From the NCBI GenBank assembly GCA_964342815.1, contig CAYFHS010000002.1, positions 120,790 through 184,789 on the forward strand: DNA of 64,000 nt. The letters run 5' to 3'. Below the pieces are notes generated by a model, which saw nothing but the letters and a program-made list of their open reading frames with translations, had not been told where the DNA came from and ran no database searches. Position numbers and translations under genes: made by a program. Source of the stretch: an uncultured archaeon (GTDB lineage: Archaea; Thermoplasmatota; Penumbrarchaeia; JASLWR01). Positions 9,333 through 59,069 of this stretch are shown here, piece after piece (position 1 is the stretch's first letter; every line of letters starts with the position of its first letter).

Positions 9333-9423
9333 GGGCCGCCGTTTGCTGTTGGTCGCCCGTAGGCTCACTAGCCGAGGGCTCAGGGGTATCTTTGATGCCA
9401 CGTAGTGAAACGGGAGCAGGCCC
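9333..9423 (+). ncRNA. Candidate structured element (RNA or ssDNA), 91 nt, pseudoknot-capable; family unassigned
   Basis: Pairings by eye: GGGCC/GGCCC, CCGTTT/AAACGG, GCCC-GTA-GGC-TCACTA-GCC-GA-GGGC, GGTATC-TTT-GATGCC. The loop TCACTA is complementary to TAGTGA at 9403-9408. GC-rich island between AT-rich flanks. Confidence 0.4.
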
Positions 9424-9453
9424 TCTATATTAAGAAAAGAAATCCTAGCTTCC

Positions 9454-20138: not shown

Positions 20139-20234
20139 GAAAATTCCAATCCCCCGATTGTCAACATATCTTATTAATGTTCGATTATTATTATTCGGAA
20201 TTTTATTCTATGGACAAAAACATATCTATTTTGC

Positions 20235-20456
20235 ATGGTATTTTGTCTAGTAGAAGATGTCTGTCTAGTAAAGGATGTTTGTCTAGTAGATGATGTTTGT
20301 CTAGTAGATGATGTTTGTCTAGTAGATGATGTTTGTCTGATAGATGATGTTTGTCTGGTAGATGATGTTTGTCTGGTAGATGATGTTTGTCTGGTAGATG
20401 ATGTTTGTCTGGTAGATGATGTTTGTATAGTAGAGGATATATCTGGTAGAGAATAG
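20235..20456 (+). CDS. Possible small acidic Cys-repeat peptide (VCLVDD)n encoded by the minisatellite
   Basis: ATG 20235 to TAG 20456 exactly brackets the array, 18 nt upstream of nreA. It may be a by-product of a stop-free 18-mer. Confidence 0.3.
   Translation: MVFCLVEDVCLVKDVCLVDDVCLVDDVCLVDDVCLIDDVCLVDDVCLVDDVCLVDDVCLVDDVCIVEDISGRE
20242..20439. repeat. Minisatellite: 11 tandem copies of an 18-bp unit, TTTGTCT(A/G)GTAGATGATG
   Basis: Units start every 18 bp from 20242 to 20422. Copies 3-5 are identical (CTAG), copies 7-10 are identical (CTGG), and the terminal copies are degenerate. No spacers. Confidence 0.95.
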
Positions 20457-20474
20457 ATCATACAGGGTGAATAA

Positions 20475-21734
20475 TTGGCATTACCGGTGAAGGATTCGGC
20501 GATATGCATAAAGTGCAAGGGAGGCAAGAGACTTTGCGGTCGGGATAGATGTCCGTATCTCGAAAAGATGAACATGTTCAACAAATCCGTCCCGATAGAA
20601 AAAGACAGTTTTTGCGGTTCTTCACCCCCTTCGGTATTCGTTGGAAGATACGGTTATCCGAAGGTGAAGATGGGGCCTCTGCTGCCGCCTTACAGAGTAT
20701 TTCGACCGGAAAGATTGGAGGACAGCAGTTACTGGCTGGACAAGGAGATCGAAGATATAGTGGGTATGCGCAGCTCCATGTACCGTACCAGCCAAGAGAT
20801 AAGCGTGAAAAACAGCTACGAGCCCTCCTCGCGTTTTCTGGCAACTACTCAGGAACTTGCACTTTCGCGCAAGAATGTTGATACCGAGATATTTCTCACA
20901 TCCATCCCAAAGGTACAAAAGATCACCAGTTTCGACTCCAGGACAGCCCCCATGGGTCCTTCGGTGGAGGCCAGGAAGGTCGATATAACCGAGAATCCCA
21001 AGGTTCCGAAGAAGGTGGACTATCTCACGTCGGACATACATGCAAAGGCCGTAACCGCAATGGTTGAGCTGTATATGTCCGGTATTCCTGTACACCATAT
21101 CGTAAGAATATTGTCGTCGGGACTTCTGGGCAGGGCGAAGGCCCGGAGCCTGGTGCCAACGAGATGGTCCATTACTGCCGTGGATGATGTAATTGGGAAA
21201 AGGCTTGCCTCGCGGGTTCGATACTTTCAGCAGTTGAACGAAGTGGAATTATATCGATACGATCATTTTGGCAATTATTTCAATGTTCTGTTGATACCCG
21301 GTTCTTATTCGTTCGAGATGATCGAAACATGGCTGAAGGGAGCTTTCTGGTCGCAGGATACCGTGCTGGTAACTGACCACGAGGGCTACAGGGGGAGAAA
21401 GGACTATGCTAGCAATATAACCGGGGCGTACTATGCCGCCAGGCTGGAAGCGTTGGCCCATCTGAGCCGTATCGGTCGTCAGGCAACCGTTATAATCTAC
21501 CGCGAGATAACAGATAAATACTGGGCTCCTCTCGGTGTATGGGTTATAAGGGATGGGGTACGGGAAGCGTTGAGCAGGAAATCAGAAAAATTTTCAGGCC
21601 TGAATGAAGCCGTATCCTCAATCACAAGCCAGGTTGAGGTTAAGAATTGGTCAAACAGCTCGAAGCTTCTCAAGGAACTGCGATGCCAGAAGAGGATCGA
21701 AGATTATGTTGATGTTTCTCCGGGCGCATTATGA
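20475..21734 (+). CDS. nreA: Nre family archaeal DNA repair protein
   Basis: N-terminal CIKCKG..LCG..RCP, GSSPPSVFVGRYGYPKV, LVPTRWSITAVDD, GAYYAARL, PLGVWVIR, C-terminal PIP-like QKRIEDY. TTG start behind GGGTGA. Confidence 0.92.
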   Translation: MALPVKDSAICIKCKGGKRLCGRDRCPYLEKMNMFNKSVPIEKDSFCGSSPPSVFVGRYGYPKVKMGPLLPPYRVFRPERLEDSSYWLDKEIEDIVGMRSSMYRTSQEISVKNSYEPSSRFLATTQELALSRKNVDTEIFLTSIPKVQKITSFDSRTAPMGPSVEARKVDITENPKVPKKVDYLTSDIHAKAVTAMVELYMSGIPVHHIVRILSSGLLGRAKARSLVPTRWSITAVDDVIGKRLASRVRYFQQLNEVELYRYDHFGNYFNVLLIPGSYSFEMIETWLKGAFWSQDTVLVTDHEGYRGRKDYASNITGAYYAARLEALAHLSRIGRQATVIIYREITDKYWAPLGVWVIRDGVREALSRKSEKFSGLNEAVSSITSQVEVKNWSNSSKLLKELRCQKRIEDYVDVSPGAL

Positions 21735-22449: not shown

Positions 22450-22480
22450 GCCACTGTATATATTTGTTTTTCTTTTTGAT

Positions 22481-22510
22481 TCGGACCTGCGTTTCTTACG
22501 TCGCAGGTCC
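22481..22510. repeat. Dispersed palindromic element, copy 1; lies between convergent genes and may act as a terminator
   Basis: GGACCTGCG-TTTCTTACGT-CGCAGGTCC flanked by T-tracts; near-identical copy at 51101. Confidence 0.7.
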
Positions 22511-22537
22511 TCTTTTTGAATAAAAGAAATAGCATTC

Positions 22538-28938: not shown

Positions 28939-29592
28939 CTAATAGACCCACTTCACAATATTCTCCAGCCCGTCGCGGCCAGTCCTGATTTTGTTTACAG
29001 GCGAAGCGGGGTCGGGATACCCGAGAGCGATCCCCAGCGTCAGTTTCTTTTCTTCCGGTAGGTTGAGAAAATCTTTTATCTCGTTCCCATAGGGGTTGAT
29101 GATTCCGATTGGACAGGTCCCAAGTCCCAGCGAATGAGCGGCCAGCGTCAGATGAGCGAGAAACGAACCGTGACAGATCATCCGTCTGTCCGGATGCGAG
29201 TCGTCCAGGAACAGTAGAATCGCAACCGGAGCGCCGTAGAATTTACAACTACCTTCGTTAATGAAAGAATCGAATTCCATTCCGGCTTCCTCGATGAAGG
29301 GCATCATTGATTTATATGCTTCCTTCTGTCTTCTATAATACTCGGGCGGCATCCTCTTTTGCGCGGAAGGGCCGCAGGGTACGCTTTTTTCTCGATACGC
29401 TTTCAGGATCACGTTCGAGAGCCGCTTCTTCTCCTTTCCGGCAAGCACCACCACTTCCCAGGGCTGGAGGTTCAGAGCGGAGGGCGAGGCAGCGGCCAGC
29501 CTCAATATCTTTTCCACGGTCTCCTTTTCGACGGTTTTTGGGAGAAATGCTCTTGTTGACGTTCTACCCTCGATAGCTTCCTTTACTTCCAT
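28939..29592 (-). CDS. Nitroreductase family protein
   Basis: AIEGRTSTRAF, ASPSALNLQPWE, FYGAPV, LAAHSLGLGTC, IALGYP. Confidence 0.92.
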   Translation of the reverse strand: MEVKEAIEGRTSTRAFLPKTVEKETVEKILRLAAASPSALNLQPWEVVVLAGKEKKRLSNVILKAYREKSVPCGPSAQKRMPPEYYRRQKEAYKSMMPFIEEAGMEFDSFINEGSCKFYGAPVAILLFLDDSHPDRRMICHGSFLAHLTLAAHSLGLGTCPIGIINPYGNEIKDFLNLPEEKKLTLGIALGYPDPASPVNKIRTGRDGLENIVKWVY

Positions 29593-29699
29593 GATGATCG
29601 CCTGATTTACTGTATGATTGATGAAGTATAATTGAAGTATCGCATATAATAAAATGGGTGAAATAAACGGCGAGAGGTATTGGTGAGAACTTACCTAGT

Positions 29700-30133
29700 T
29701 GAGCGAATACACACAGTGGAAACAACCTGAATTAGCCGTCCCAAGCCCCCCACCCTGAGCTCTTCGCTGGCTCGTTCTGGTCAATTTGCTTCGCAAACAG
29801 CCCTGTATCTTCCAGCAAATTTGCTGTAAGACACCTCACCCCCGCTCACCTGCTTGGTCTCGTAAATATAATGGGATTTGCTATGGAATAGGTTATATTA
29901 GTTGTTATCGGGCTCGCGCCCACTCTGTTCCGTTGCATCAGAGATACAACTGCGACTATCGAGTATTGCCCGATAGTATGTGCAATGCTCTCGCATTGAA
30001 ACGCCCTCGGGGTGTTACCCTACGGGCATGCACCTATACCACCCCTACAATCCACCCCGGCTATCGTGATCGACAGGACCCCTCCTGGCGACTCAGGTGT
30101 GCTCGTAGGGCACACCACGAGCCCTTGAGGTAG
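29700..30133 (-). ncRNA. Candidate large structured non-coding element; family unassigned
   Basis: Protein-gene-free GC-rich stretch with many hairpins. GNRA loops (GAGA, GCGA) and a G-U pair favour the minus strand. Shares a covarying 25-nt hairpin with 9355-9379. Confidence 0.5.
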
Positions 30134-30181
30134 GTTTGAATCGAAAAAATTAGTGTTCAAATCTTAATTTCAAACACTTCC

Positions 30182-30197
30182 ACCAAAGATATTTAAA
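30182..30197 (+). promoter_or_regulatory. Putative BRE/TATA promoter of a leaderless MBL hydrolase transcript
   Basis: TTTAAA at 30192-30197 preceded by purine-rich AAAG, about 28 nt before ATG 30220, with no SD sequence. Confidence 0.45.
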
Positions 30198-30219
30198 CAA
30201 CTAAGTGTAATTTACCAAC

Positions 30220-31050
30220 ATGCATATGGTGATATTGGGGTCCGGACAGGATGCGGGTAATCCGCAGATTGGGTGCAGTTGCGAGATATGTGAGCGGGCC
30301 TGGAATGACAGTAATTTTGGAAGATTCGGGCCTTCTATCGCCTTAATTGATGAAACCAATAATTCTTTTATTATCATCGATGCCTCGCCCGATCTCAAGT
30401 ATCAACTGGAAATCCTTCGAGAAACTTATCCAGGTATTAGTGATATAAAAAAGTCCTTGAAGGGCGTACTTCTGACACACGCTCACATGGGACACTGTTT
30501 TGGGTTATGGCATTTCGGCAGGGAATCTCTGAATACCCGGGATGTTCCGGTTTACTGCACTTCGCACATGAAATTTATTCTGTACAATAATTACCCTTTC
30601 GATCAACTGGTCCGGGGAAATAACATCAGAATAATCGAAGTGGCCGACAACAGCAGATTCACGGTGCAGGGCTTAAGTATCATACCGGTGACGGTTCCTC
30701 ACAGGAACGAGGTTGCTGATACCGTGGGATATGTCATTGATTCCGGCAAGAAAATAGTCTATTTTCCAGATGTGAACTACTGGACGAAGAGCGTCATGAA
30801 AATCATCCGTTTGGCAGATGTCGCTCTGCTGGACGGAACTTTCTACTCCAGGAACGAATTGGGCCGTTTCAATGAAGTTCCGCATCCGTTGATCAAGGAA
30901 ACAATTGAACTTCTTTGGAACGTGAAAAACCGCATTATTTTCACACATATAAATCATACGAATCCACTGAACTTCAATGGTAGTGAAAGAGAATATGTGG
31001 AGAGCAAAGGATTCGAGGTCGCTTCGGATGGTATGAAAATAGAGATTTAA
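30220..31050 (+). CDS. Metallo-beta-lactamase-fold hydrolase, PqqB/PhnP-like
   Basis: ILGSGQDAGNPQIGCSC..C, IIDASPD, LTHAHMGH, VPHRNE, DGTFY, HP, THINHTNP. Confidence 0.88.
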   Translation: MHMVILGSGQDAGNPQIGCSCEICERAWNDSNFGRFGPSIALIDETNNSFIIIDASPDLKYQLEILRETYPGISDIKKSLKGVLLTHAHMGHCFGLWHFGRESLNTRDVPVYCTSHMKFILYNNYPFDQLVRGNNIRIIEVADNSRFTVQGLSIIPVTVPHRNEVADTVGYVIDSGKKIVYFPDVNYWTKSVMKIIRLADVALLDGTFYSRNELGRFNEVPHPLIKETIELLWNVKNRIIFTHINHTNPLNFNGSEREYVESKGFEVASDGMKIEI

Positions 31051-46025: not shown

Positions 46026-48875
46026 ATGTTAGTGGTTTTTTTCATGATAAAGGAATCGAAATGGATTATATTCATGATCACCATTTTCCTCGTTGTTAAT
46101 GTGATCAGGTGCAATAATAGCGTATCCGCTTCTTTTCCGATAAACATTGCCTGGGTGACATTTTCGGATCACTCCAATGAAGTGGTTTCGGTATCATGGT
46201 CGCCCGACGAGGGAAAGATCGCCTCGTGTTCCTATGACGGGACCGTAAAGATATGGATCCCTTCTACCAAAGAAATCATCCGGACTTTTTCTAATCTGGA
46301 AGGATACGTTATGGACCTCGCGTGGTCCCCCGACAGCACTAAGATAGTCGCCTCCTCATATGAGATTGCCAAGATATGGGATGTGGGGAGCGGTAGTATA
46401 GTGACCACATACTCCGGTCATACCAATTACATCACCTGTGTCTCTTGGGCTGCTACCGGAAACAAGATCGCCTCTGGAGCCGGGGACAATACCATAAAGA
46501 TATGGGATGCTGTGACAGGAAACGAGATATCCGATCTGAACGGACACAACGGCACGGTGCTCGATGTCGCCTGGTCACCGGATGCAACGAAACTGGCATC
46601 CTGTTCAAGCGATAACACCATAAAGATATGGAATGTGACAGCTGAGCAAGCCATATCTTCCCTGGAAGGACACACAGGTGCAGTTAATGGGATTTCTTGG
46701 TCCCCCGATGGCAACTTTCTTGTTTCTTGTTCCTCTGATAATTATATCAAGATCTGGAACGTCACTAACGAAAACGTCATAACGACATTGTCCGGCCATA
46801 CCCTGAGTGTCAGTTCTGTGGTATGTTCACCGGACGGGACGATGATCCTTTCAACTTCATTCGACCAATCGGCGAGGGTGTGGGATTTTGAGACCGGAGA
46901 TGAGATCATAGGTCTTTTAGAACACAGCTCAGGTCTACATTCCGCTGCGTGGTGTCCCGACACTATGTCGGTGGTCACTTGTTCTGAGGATTACACTGCA
47001 AAGGTATGGTATCTCGATTTCGATGGAGATGATTTTGTGAGAGATTCCTTTCCCCTGGACCCGGCCGCCAGTAAAGATACTGACGGCGATGGAACTCCGG
47101 ATTCATGGAACGAGGGAATGAATGAAAATGACTCTCTCTATGACCTTTACTTGGATATTTTCCCGACCGATCCTTCAGCATCTGTCGATACCGATGAAGA
47201 CGGTTGGCCGGATGAGTGGAATGAGGGCTGTACCGAGAATGATAGCACGACTTGGCTGGTTCTTGATGCTTTTCCAACCGATCCTGCCGCGAGTATGGAT
47301 CGCGATGGAGATAATTACCCTGACCGATGGAACGGCGGTTATGGTCCCAATAGTTCCACTTTGGGATTAGAAAGACTTGATGATTTCCCGAATGATCCGG
47401 CTGCTAGCCTGGACACTGATGGTGATGGGTATCCGTACATGTGGAATGCCGGAAAGGGACCGACCGATTCGACCACGGGTTTAAGACTTGATGATTTCAC
47501 ATATGATCCCGCAGCCTCGCTTGACAGCGACGGGGACGGTTTTCCCGATGAATGGAATCGCTTCAAAAGCGCTTCGGATTCCACCAAGGGATTGCGATTG
47601 GATGATCTTCCGCATGATATTGCAGCGAGCTTGGACACAGATGGTGACGGTTATCCCAACCAATGGAATCAGGGAATGGGGGTACATAATTCCGTCACTG
47701 GCTTGAAGATAGATGTATTTCCAAATGACCCTGCTGCGGCCCTTGATAGCGATGGCGACGGGGCGACCGACGAGTGGGTAGCGGGCAAGGATAAAGATGA
47801 CTCTTTCGATAGATTGGAACTGGATGCGTTTCCTTATGATATTGCAGCTACCGTGGATAGCGATGGCGACGGTTACCCTGATAAATGGAACCCTGGAATG
47901 ACAAAGAAAGACTCGGTAACGGGTTTAGTTCTGGATTCATTTCCTGATGATTCCGCGGCCACTCTTGATACAGATGGTGACGGATACCCCGATCGTTGGA
48001 ATGAGGGGATGAATGAATCAAATTCATCCACGGATCTACGCTTGGATGCGTTTCCTTATGATCCAGCTGCGAGCCTGGATAGCGATGGTGACGGCTCACC
48101 GGATTTCTGGAATATAGGTAAATCCAAAATAGACTCCACCAAGGATCTTACCCTTGACGATTTCCCGAACGATACCGCTGCGAGCCTTGATACCGACAGG
48201 GATGGCTCACCAGATTCATGGAATGAACGAATGTCTCAAAAGGATTCCACTACCGGGCTTGTACTGGATGCATATCCTCATGATTCTAGTAGATACTGGA
48301 CAGAAGATGAAAGTGGAAATAACTTTCTATGGCTGGTAATGATCATTGTTATATTATTCATTGTTATCTTATCAGGAATAGGTGTATTTCTATTTATCCG
48401 AACAAGAAAAAAGAATGCAACCTCTAATCAGGAAAGTGAAAGCGAATATATTAATACCGAAGTGGATATCGTATACCCATCTACAGATTTGTCAGCTGGT
48501 GATTCATCAACGCATTTTGCAAAAAGACAACCTGAATATTACGGAAGGACCAAAAATTTTCCTCCCCCAAGTGATTATATTCCTCATCAAAGAAAGGAAA
48601 GTTTTATGGATAACATAAATCCGTATGAGCGATCCGTAGGGAATTCTATTCAGGAGGATGTTCCGGTAGGATCGGGTTGGTTGCCACCTGTGAAGAAGAT
48701 ATCCGCATCCAATCTACCCGAACCTCAAATAGCCCGGTTGCAGTTGTCCGAACCAAAATTGAAAACCATTACCTGTTCGGGTTGTGATGGAAAATTCATG
48801 GGTCAAATCTCTGTTGTGCCTTCCATGGTGACTTGTCCGTTTTGTGGAGTTGAAAAAATAATTGCTTCCTTTTAG
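46026..48875 (+). CDS. Membrane-anchored protein: signal peptide, 7 WD40 repeats, 11-12 DxDGDG Ca-binding (TSP3-like) repeats, TM, C-terminal zinc ribbon
   Basis: GH..V..V.WSPD....S.S.D.T.KIW repeats; 37-aa FPxDPAASLDxDGDGxPDxWN units; TM; CSGC...CPFCG. Confidence 0.92.
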   Translation: MLVVFFMIKESKWIIFMITIFLVVNVIRCNNSVSASFPINIAWVTFSDHSNEVVSVSWSPDEGKIASCSYDGTVKIWIPSTKEIIRTFSNLEGYVMDLAWSPDSTKIVASSYEIAKIWDVGSGSIVTTYSGHTNYITCVSWAATGNKIASGAGDNTIKIWDAVTGNEISDLNGHNGTVLDVAWSPDATKLASCSSDNTIKIWNVTAEQAISSLEGHTGAVNGISWSPDGNFLVSCSSDNYIKIWNVTNENVITTLSGHTLSVSSVVCSPDGTMILSTSFDQSARVWDFETGDEIIGLLEHSSGLHSAAWCPDTMSVVTCSEDYTAKVWYLDFDGDDFVRDSFPLDPAASKDTDGDGTPDSWNEGMNENDSLYDLYLDIFPTDPSASVDTDEDGWPDEWNEGCTENDSTTWLVLDAFPTDPAASMDRDGDNYPDRWNGGYGPNSSTLGLERLDDFPNDPAASLDTDGDGYPYMWNAGKGPTDSTTGLRLDDFTYDPAASLDSDGDGFPDEWNRFKSASDSTKGLRLDDLPHDIAASLDTDGDGYPNQWNQGMGVHNSVTGLKIDVFPNDPAAALDSDGDGATDEWVAGKDKDDSFDRLELDAFPYDIAATVDSDGDGYPDKWNPGMTKKDSVTGLVLDSFPDDSAATLDTDGDGYPDRWNEGMNESNSSTDLRLDAFPYDPAASLDSDGDGSPDFWNIGKSKIDSTKDLTLDDFPNDTAASLDTDRDGSPDSWNERMSQKDSTTGLVLDAYPHDSSRYWTEDESGNNFLWLVMIIVILFIVILSGIGVFLFIRTRKKNATSNQESESEYINTEVDIVYPSTDLSAGDSSTHFAKRQPEYYGRTKNFPPPSDYIPHQRKESFMDNINPYERSVGNSIQEDVPVGSGWLPPVKKISASNLPEPQIARLQLSEPKLKTITCSGCDGKFMGQISVVPSMVTCPFCGVEKIIASF
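47049..48296 (+). repeat. In-frame repeat of about 111 bp (37 aa), 11 full copies plus a partial copy
   Basis: FPxDxAASLDxDGDG recurs every 37 aa (one unit is 38 aa); the DNA is diverged. Confidence 0.9.
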
Positions 48876-50898: not shown

Positions 50899-51100
50899 TA
50901 TTATTCCTACAAACAGTTATCATTTATAATTTTTGTCTTAATGTCGTATAACTAGCAAAATTGACCATTTTTGTAATATTCGAAAACCAACTGGACGTTC
51001 GATTATCATTTCTATTTATCCAACCCGCAGATAAAGATTGGCCGGTATTTTACCGACCTTGGAGACTACCGTCTCCTTTTGTAATCATTTTATTTTTTTG

Positions 51101-51130
51101 TCGGGCCTGCGTTTCTTGCGTCGCAGGCCC
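51101..51130. repeat. Dispersed palindromic element, copy 2
   Basis: GGGCCTGCG-TTTCTTGCGT-CGCAGGCCC; differs from copy 1 by a compensatory A-T to G-C stem pair and one loop base. Confidence 0.7.
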
Positions 51131-51250
51131 TTTAGGTAAACAAGTCGTCAATTGTCCCTATATGTCTGTTTTCAATTCGAAATAATAAACAATGTTTTTA
51201 ATCTGTTCTTCCGTTATACGTATCTCCCACAGCAGCCACCGGGTGCCAAA

Positions 51251-58782: not shown

Positions 58783-59069
58783 TGATACCCTCTCTGTTCA
58801 AACGATCTGTAATAATAGTGTTGCATTTGGCTCTTGACCTTTCGATAACGAATATCCATATTTAAAGGTATTTTGTAATAATCTATATTGGAAAGGATTG
58901 TCAGCTCGCCAAAATCATCCTCTTACATCCCCGTTTCCGCTTCACTTTTCTCTCCTTTTTTTCATCATTTAGGAAATACGGACCATGCCCACTTTGTTCC
59001 GCAGAATCAGAGATACTGCTGCACCTTCGATTTCCCTTGGAAATCTGCTGGGCCAGTCGATTTTTTTCG

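Follow-up and report, generated by a model that had tools for sequence, protein, structure and literature searches.

What is the hairpin-dense element that lies in the spacer between two divergent genes, one for a nitroreductase and one for a metallo-beta-lactamase-fold (MBL) hydrolase, in an uncultured archaeon of the Thermoplasmatota? The element is 239 nt long (29895-30133) and belongs to a 64,000-nt stretch of contig CAYFHS010000002.1 (assembly GCA_964342815.1, positions 120,790 to 184,789), which we refer to as the window and whose numbering we use throughout. A preliminary description of this DNA had offered two interpretations, a discrete and undescribed gene for a large non-coding RNA (ncRNA) or the long form of a dispersed element family. 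Here we compare the source genome (G000, 89% complete) with genomes from the same genus (G001), from a sister genus (G003) and from a third genus of the same family (G002). We conclude with considerable confidence that the element is a nested composite of dispersed mobile repeats and not a discrete ncRNA gene. On balance we also favor the broader proposition that combines this architecture with mobility through guide pairing, similar to that of IS200/IS605 elements and repetitive extragenic palindromes (REPs).

Architecture of the element

BLAST searches of the source genome and its relatives found the element as a whole to be single-copy and its pieces to recur: many loci of G000 contain 36-nt matches, and over 25 loci of G003 contain matches that are long and modular. 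The pieces fall into two layers. The RNA-sense strand of the inner layer, the core unit, is the window's minus strand at 29892-30126, and the parts of both layers are given here as read on that strand. The outer layer (layer 0) is a host module of about 125 nt, module L, whose 5' part (30126-30027) and 3' part (29916-29892) are separated by the core unit. The 5' part comprises a closing strand, GGGCUCG (30124-30118), the hairpins H1 (30116-30096) and H2 (30087-30074) and a G-rich tract (30058-30033). The 3' part consists of CGAGCCC (29916-29910) followed by GAUAACAACUAA, and immediately beyond the junction it aligns with the 3' end of L modules that stand alone. Module L is 74-81% identical to multi-copy modules in G003, where it also occurs alone, without a core unit, at L027, L190, L028 and L189; H1, H2 and the GGCUC/GAGUC helix of the module show compensatory changes. 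The G-rich tract (30033-30058, minus strand) is conserved in the G003 modules as GGGG-N-GGGG-N4-GGGG-N-GG, and might fold into a G-quadruplex or else pair with the P3 hairpin of the core unit, on its C-rich side.

The inner layer (layer 1) is a core unit of 110 nt (30026-29917), inserted into module L after ..GCAUG. It begins with YCC (30026-30024), GUA (30023-30021), the P3 hairpin (30020-30009), GA (30008-30007) and a guide, GGGCG (30006-30002), and continues with CAG (29952-29950), the P4 hairpin (29950-29932), a CGGAAC-AGAGU linker (29932-29922) and a tail of GGG plus CG (29921-29917). With 30026-29917 removed in silico, the host and the stand-alone copies L027 and L190 align without interruption at the junction, and alignments to the occupied G003 copies L019, L023 and L029 end exactly at the junction. 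A covariance model, R1, which was built from an alignment of 28 core units (A1), matches 29908-29978 with 39 bits, and the match is split by a 49-nt expansion (29953-30001) between the guide and CAG. This expansion consists of two hairpins, CAAUGC-GAGA-GCAUUG (29998-29983) and ACUAUCG..CGAUAGU (29977-29955). It is missing from most units, such that in L019 the equivalent of 30002 runs straight into that of 29954, and three G003 units have it at an identical position, where it shows compensatory changes and loops of GAGA, GAAA or CAGA. The core unit at 30026-29917 thus belongs to a rare, expansion-bearing sub-lineage. We considered the expansion as an independently mobile module and rejected the idea, given that all four copies occupy the same position in the unit and a flanking repeat accompanies only one of them.

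The hairpins that had been listed from the sequence are all present on the minus strand, namely CAATGC-GAGA-GCATTG (29998-29983), GGGC-GCGA-GCCC (29921-29910), GTTGTATC-TCT-GATGCAAC (29950-29932) and CAGGA-GGGG-TCCTG (30087-30074), together with the stems ACTATCG/CGATAGT (29977-29955) and GGTGTGC/GCACACC (30116-30096). The 25-nt hairpin (30027-30003) that had been recognized as common to this locus and the '9333 element' elsewhere in the window is the P2-P3 arm of the core unit. The competing pairings are also real: a local helix of GGCUC (30123-30119) with GAGUC (30094-30090), for which relatives carry compensatory changes, competes with the distal pairing of GGGCUCG with CGAGCCC (29916-29910). 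The mutually exclusive pairings are a consequence of this nesting, and of guide and closing strands each being used twice. For the minus strand of 29895-30140 the folding energy is -96.2 kcal/mol, compared to -81.0 +/- 4.5 kcal/mol for dinucleotide shuffles (z = -3.39; 0 of 200 as good), and the plus strand folds less strongly (z = -2.12).

In searches against Rfam 15, no match reached the gathering score anywhere in the window. Permissive searches of 29500-30300 (E<=10) and of seven loci with canonical or long copies (E<=1) likewise gave nothing relevant, the only matches being the chance-level C/D-box ones described below and one anti-hemB-like terminator. There was, accordingly, no covariance match to the described RNA families of this release, which include self-cleaving ribozymes, RNase P, the signal recognition particle RNA and introns.

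The inserted block and its neighbors

The nitroreductase gene (28939-29592, minus strand) and the MBL hydrolase gene (30220-31050, plus strand) are both retained in G001, in the same divergent arrangement and with 74% and 89% amino-acid identity. The spacer between them is 627 nt in G000 and 178 nt in G001. Both promoter-proximal flanks align, and the extra 468 nt or so in G000 constitute a lineage-specific inserted block (29672-30139) that is absent from the orthologous spacer. Besides the element, this block contains a second composite, made of other dispersed repeat modules (29672-29862, minus strand), of which 29733-29853 matches C19, C10, C37 and further contigs of the same genome with 79-89% identity by BLAST.

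Of the two interpretations offered initially, it is therefore the 'long form of a dispersed element family' that holds, as shown by the R1 match to a family of more than 100 copies and by the many recurrences of the long composite in G003. A discrete ncRNA gene is not supported, since the element is absent from the orthologous G001 spacer and separates into a host module and an inserted unit, each of which also occurs alone elsewhere. The AT-rich, promoter-like DNA described upstream of the element exists as a TATA-like box (upstream in the minus-strand sense), which we read as an archaeal TATA box. Because it is conserved in G001, which lacks the element, the box most likely serves the MBL gene.

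At the other edge of the block, a segment that overlaps the start and promoter of the nitroreductase gene (29585-29669, plus strand) and is conserved in G001 gave C/D-box small nucleolar RNA-like Rfam matches at chance level (E = 2-9, 10-16 bits); these are probably fortuitous.

Covariation in the core-unit family

Core units are discrete insertions of 58-80 nt with a common layout: a left flank ending in ..yx, then YCC-GUA-P3-GA-GG(G/A)xy-CAG-P4-CGGAAC-N5-GGG-yx, then the right flank, where P3 and P4 are hairpins. P3 may have any sequence, and the apex of P4 is often AUC-nnn-GAU. A further helix, P2, is formed by the last bases of the left flank and YCC, paired with the guide. In A1, the pairs of P2, the outer pair of P3 and P4 are 95.9% paired with 74 double-change cells; none of 500 shuffles did as well and no slid control came near. 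A second alignment, derived from the model and comprising 72 distinct units from three genomes, has 801 Watson-Crick, 63 G.U and 6 A.C cells in P2 and P4. Since the stems tolerate G.U but not A.C, structure matters on one strand only, here the minus strand of the window. The stems, the G-U pairs valid on a single strand and the alternative pairings that had been described from one locus thereby gain statistical support across copies.

The guide covaries with two partners. Its xyC sits 1 nt 5' of the foot of P4 and covaries with the tail G-y'-x' that follows the 3' GGG. This guide-tail pairing reaches 92.9% in A1, with 0 of 500 shuffles as good; for its two middle pairs in the 72 units, 89% are paired (Watson-Crick or G.U), compared to a shuffle mean of 62% and maximum of 71%, with counts of CG 32 / UA 29 and GC 44 / UA 15. 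Between guide and left flank, 79% are paired (shuffle mean 63%, maximum 71%; 72 units). A single guide is therefore complementary to two sequences, the bases that precede the unit on its left and those with which the unit ends. Guides vary widely between copies (CGC, CUC, UGC, UUC, UAC and others).

Conservation outside the stems is concentrated in unpaired junctions: the GUA/GA internal loop, NCAG and CGGAAC..GUGGG. GUAG precedes P3 in 26 of the 28 A1 units, its four columns being invariant or at least 90% conserved, and the 72-unit consensus is the same. Bulge-helix-bulge intron, kink-turn and C/D-box readings of the GUA/GA loop were dropped by eye, as we judged the motif geometry to be unsuitable.

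We also observed a sister family, which has the same P2-GUA-P3-GA-guide arm, GAAG in place of GCAG, a conserved second hairpin GUGAAUUUACNAAUUCAC and a U-rich tail. Copies in G000 include C27:29993-30029, C36:1079-1115 and C10:122250-122281.

Evidence for insertion

The clearest view of an insertion comes from two loci of G000, C3:137650-138040 and C6:45403-45793, which share a composite repeat of about 340 nt, C6 having one extra 63-nt unit. The two composites are identical wherever they were compared, over 278 nt downstream and about 50 nt upstream of the insertion point. The filled site (C6:45732-45795) and the empty site (C3:137678-137747) are identical over 35 nt on each side (70/70), with a 3-nt repeat, GCA; the empty site reads ..CCUGCA|CCCUCGG.. 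and the filled site ..CCUGCA|UCCGUAG...GGUGAGCA|CCCUCGG...

To look for empty sites more generally, we took YCC...GGGyx as the unit, removed it in silico from 50 full-length copies and used the flanks, joined as 35+35 nt, as queries against the genome. Gapless, junction-spanning empty-site paralogs with 85-100% identity were found for 21 of the 50, some of them with dozens of empty copies. This definition of the unit reproduces the empty sites exactly, and the same data also fit a target duplication of 1-4 bp; the direct repeats beside the units are short, with a length that varies from 0 to 6 nt and is mostly 1-4. Units occur within other repeats, within one another and between genes, and comparison of paralogous as well as orthologous sites shows them to be present at some and absent from others. 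Where they are nested in each other, the P4 apex and the P3 loop are occupied, on either strand.

A tandem satellite of about 65 nt, with 94% identity between copies and dozens of copies genome-wide, was also noted (C19:5807-5945, equivalent to L205:108-246; C17:65371-65562; C3:22894-23129). It is a frequent host of core units, and in it 38 empty-site matches were obtained for the unit C3:68538-68599 and 44 for C2:218268-218327.

A possible mechanism of mobility

In IS200/IS605 elements, subterminal hairpins of one strand are bound by a Y1 HUH transposase, the cleavage site pairs with a tetranucleotide guide that lies 5' of each hairpin foot, insertion takes place 3' of a target that the guide recognizes by pairing, and integration can be redirected by altering the guide (PMC5934647, PMC6006769). 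For IS608, the insertion point lies 3' of a tetranucleotide that is recognized by pairing with a guide 5' of the subterminal hairpin, and the right end is recognized likewise (PMC5934647, PMC6006769). Core units match this logic in being discrete, structure-conserving and strand-specific, in the complementarity of guide to target and end, in their precise empty sites, in nesting, and in presence/absence polymorphism, which includes one event without substitutions in the surrounding repeat. On the strength of this match we tentatively propose single-strand, guide-directed mobility of a 'peel and paste' kind, by analogy with IS200/IS605 and REP systems, and we consider its probability to fall somewhat short of even. 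The units would be non-autonomous and structure-dependent, and would move as a folded single strand, most likely single-stranded DNA (ssDNA). The hairpins would be bound by a structure-specific enzyme, and the internal guide would form pairs at two places, the cleavage site of the right end and the target. Insertion would then occur 3' of a short sequence complementary to the element's guide, and a changed guide would mean a changed target. The composite at this locus is most likely a selfish passenger in a permissive spacer between divergent promoters and not a regulator of either gene, although it may be transcribed and have some side effect as RNA.

A number of observations weigh against the mechanism. 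The first concern the enzyme. No Y1/HUH transposase, REP-associated tyrosine transposase (RAYT), TnpB or reverse transcriptase was found in G000, which is 89% complete, and the models NF047646 and PF01797 have no match there. IS200-type TnpA was found in neither G000 nor G002; the latter has one unit and no Y1 gene, a sample of one. G001 and G003 have only IS200-type TnpA (NF033573, 99-115 bits; RAYT model, 22-26 bits against a cut-off of 80), with genes encoding 155-163 aa at L167:1465-1956 in G003 and at L168:1405-1896 and L166:1423-1890 in G001. The IS200 end hairpins in these two genomes are unrelated to the units, and no units adjoin the TnpA genes; the G003 copy at L167, for which the ends were read, has GCCAG...CUGG end hairpins and a right end of ..TTTAC. 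Other points concern the units themselves. The left flank and the right end share one guide, unlike in IS608, the invariant GUA 5' of P3 covaries with nothing, and the linker between P4 and the end is anywhere from 3 to 13 nt long. Another type of enzyme could have produced the flanking repeats (0-6 nt) as target-site duplications, and the conserved single-stranded junctions and GNRA-type loops would fit a function at the RNA level too. The strand of the units was not associated with GC skew or gene-strand bias (Fisher p = 0.35-1.0, in a fragmented assembly with unplaced replication origins).

Several specific sources of mobility were tried and rejected. Mobilization in trans by the IS200 copies of G001 and G003 is at odds with their unrelated end hairpins, and only one weak model match (9.7 bits) lies near these copies. 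Membership of a REP/RAYT system was rejected for want of a RAYT, and an omega-RNA/TnpB origin for want of TnpB in G000. An ORF-carrying master copy was sought among matches to the 5' half only; these proved to be nested units or members of the sister family, with no cargo open reading frame (ORF).

Relation to known systems

Core units most resemble two kinds of element. One is the REP and its mosaic assemblies, the bacterial interspersed mosaic elements (BIMEs), mobilized by RAYT/TnpA-REP. Here, as there, copy number is high, copies are mainly intergenic and in excess in convergent spacers, they cluster as mosaics, and their structure is strand-specific. In REPs, a GTAG 5' of the hairpin foot acts as guide (PMC6006769), and in core units a conserved GTAG lies directly 5' of a hairpin whose stem sequence is variable yet paired. 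GTAG-tagged REPs have been found inserted in palindromes (PMC3733652), and insertion inside palindromes is likewise seen here. The core units differ in their archaeal host and in that no RAYT was found; RAYTs have not been seen in archaea (PMC6006769). They differ also in having two hairpins, an internal guide and a conserved 3' tail instead of a single palindrome of 20-40 nt, and in that the guide covarying with the flank is not the GTAG.

The second kind comprises the ends of IS200/IS605 elements (IS608, ISDra2) and their ORF-less derivatives. Shared features are subterminal hairpins, a guide 5' of a hairpin foot that pairs with the element's own end and the target, and a target set by the DNA of the element and not by protein (PMC5934647). 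Insertion 3' of a target that remains in the left flank, with a precise empty site, may be shared as well, the empty sites being compatible both with this and with a short target duplication. In contrast to these elements, core units use one guide for both ends, are only 58-80 nt long, have no ORF-bearing master copy that we could find and possess diverse guides, whereas the target of an IS family is normally fixed. Moreover, there is no Y1 transposase in G000, the IS200 ends of its relatives differ, and neither TnpB nor omega-RNA was found. The family thus fails the defining test of both nearest kinds, having no RAYT as in REP/BIME and no cognate TnpA as in IS200/IS605.

More distant similarities exist to nested repeats resembling MITEs (miniature transposable elements with inverted repeats), such as Correia elements, Rickettsia palindromic elements (RPEs), enterobacterial repetitive intergenic consensus (ERIC) sequences and the SM MITEs of Sulfolobus, which are likewise short, non-autonomous, folding, nesting and intergenic. 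The inverted-repeat-like ends of host module L, GGGCUCG/CGAGCCC, are MITE-like. Unlike in a classical MITE, a derivative of a DDE element, the ends of the core unit (YCCGUAG.../...GGGyx) are not inverted repeats and there is no target duplication of fixed length; unlike MITE-like repeats, the copies are not near-identical but diverse, with compensatory changes in their stems.

Our literature searches found no description of the core-unit family. It is possible, although we regard it as rather doubtful, that it is an undescribed miniature element that is naturally re-programmable through pairing of the guide with target and own end, and that is moved by a novel enzyme or by self-processing; re-programmability is suggested by the existence of many guide/target variants. 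If this is true, the family would represent both a minimal, new machinery for guide-directed insertion and the first system of REP type in Archaea. The family offers a natural data set of hundreds of copies in three genomes, in which the guide covaries with the insertion site and the element's own end. This is the principle that makes IS608 re-targetable; here it appears with no identifiable transposase and in a domain, the archaea, from which REP/RAYT systems are not known. The enzyme, once found, could yield a very small guide-directed DNA insertion system.

Alternative explanations

An unlikely alternative, yet the one that survives best, is that the units are functional structured RNA modules, such as a protein-binding small RNA, a stability or termination module, or an undescribed ribozyme that cleaves or ligates itself. 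The guide pairings would then be alternative RNA helices or an end-joining splint, and the element a large variant with expansion segments, all of which is compatible with mobility as DNA. The strand-specific covariation with its many G.U pairs is what such an RNA would show, although tolerance of G.T is equally expected of folded ssDNA. The conserved unpaired junctions (the GUA/GA internal loop, NCAG and CGGAAC..GUGGG), the GNRA-type loops kept as GAGA or GAAA in the expansion, and a fold more stable than shuffles point the same way. In a circular or end-joined molecule, guide, tail and 5' end would moreover be expected to form a continuous helix of 6 bp. Against an RNA function, P3 and P4 stem sequences vary freely, as if only their shape were recognized, units are inserted into each other on either strand, and those in co-directional spacers are unbiased (14 sense, 12 antisense). 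Neither this locus nor the canonical copies has an Rfam match at permissive E-values, and the element is absent from the orthologous G001 locus.

Spread through RNA, by reverse splicing or target-primed reverse transcription, is very improbable. The guide does pair with sequence just upstream of the insertion point and with the first bases of the element, reminiscent of the pairing between exon- and intron-binding sites (EBS/IBS) of introns, and the structure is strand-specific. However, neither G000 nor G001, each with more than 100 copies, has a reverse transcriptase (PF00078), which only G003 possesses, and the units, at 58-80 nt, have no recognizable intron core and no Rfam match to group I or II introns.

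Least credible of all is that an RNA specific to this locus (a leader, riboswitch or antisense RNA) regulates the MBL hydrolase or nitroreductase gene in cis. The position between divergent genes and the TATA-like box upstream on the minus strand might suggest this, but G001 keeps both genes, both promoter-proximal flanks and the box without any of the block, and parts of the element occur at many unrelated loci. A false lead is thereby removed, as the nested composite is neither a new large ncRNA gene nor a regulator of its neighbors.

Copies, distribution and genomic setting

R1 was used to score 150 of about 1300 candidates in G000, of which 126 matched, and 123 candidates per genome in G001 and G003. 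The counts are therefore lower bounds, with no fewer than 106-126 core-unit copies in G000, 120 in G001 and 121 in G003. G002 and another genome of the class have one R1 copy each. R1 found no copies in 32 further genomes of the class and none outside the family (f1) among 151 sampled genomes of the phylum. A scan of IMG/VR gave 13 pattern matches, none of which pass the model, and a pattern scan of 185,579 species genomes returned mostly chance matches in GC-rich bacteria. The genomes with multiple matches in that scan are two archaeal metagenome-assembled genomes, one identical to G003 at one locus and one labeled as Thermoplasmatota. G000 itself is archaeal by its RNase P RNA, which scores 201 bits as the archaeal type. 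Among the genomes searched, the family is confined to one archaeal family.

The canonical short core unit of the window is the '9333 element' (9348-9425, plus strand; R1, 72 bits, E = 5e-20). A further member lies at 58977-59059 on the minus strand (39.5 bits), where nhmmer aligns the guide, P4 and tail only (profile positions 18-71). The window also contains a host hairpin in its unoccupied state, GGACCUGCG-UUUCUUACGU-CGCAGGUCC (22468-22511, plus strand), of direct-repeat family D18, with a second copy at 51088-51131; this hairpin is occupied by a core unit at C23:38259-38335 and other sites.

Of the 77 nhmmer matches in G000, 45 fall in intergenic DNA and 10 at the edges of contigs; the other 22 fall at the ends of ORFs or within ORFs that are short or doubtful. 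Convergent spacers contain 14 of the 45 clearly intergenic copies and divergent spacers 5, the remaining 26 being in co-directional spacers (14 sense, 12 antisense); by intergenic length, the background is 17% for convergent, 28% for divergent and 54% for co-directional spacers. Because convergent spacers exceed this background and divergent spacers fall below it, core units favor the 3' sides of genes, with no sense bias.

The family accounts for many 'structured RNA candidates' and, probably, contig breaks in these genomes and should be masked before RNA-motif discovery. Many units are at contig ends, as at C1:3-337, C16:4-65, C29:2-157, C33:350-471, C52:85-209 and C61:3-180; the repeat family probably causes assembly breaks and is under-counted. 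One antisense core unit was observed within a 387-aa ORF with an N-terminal DnaJ domain (G000 C12:59107-60270, equivalent to L204:208-1371), which could be an intragenic insertion, as with bacterial intragenic REPs and RPEs, or an over-extended ORF.

Other repeats were observed in the window. Positions 20206-20475 hold eleven head-to-tail copies of an 18-bp unit (family D1), and 47076-48247 hold at least eight 111-bp repeats (GAT..GAT GGT GAC GGN) that correspond to Asp/Gly-rich protein repeats of a large surface protein. At the very start of the window, 1-396 also contains 99-bp tandem repeats.
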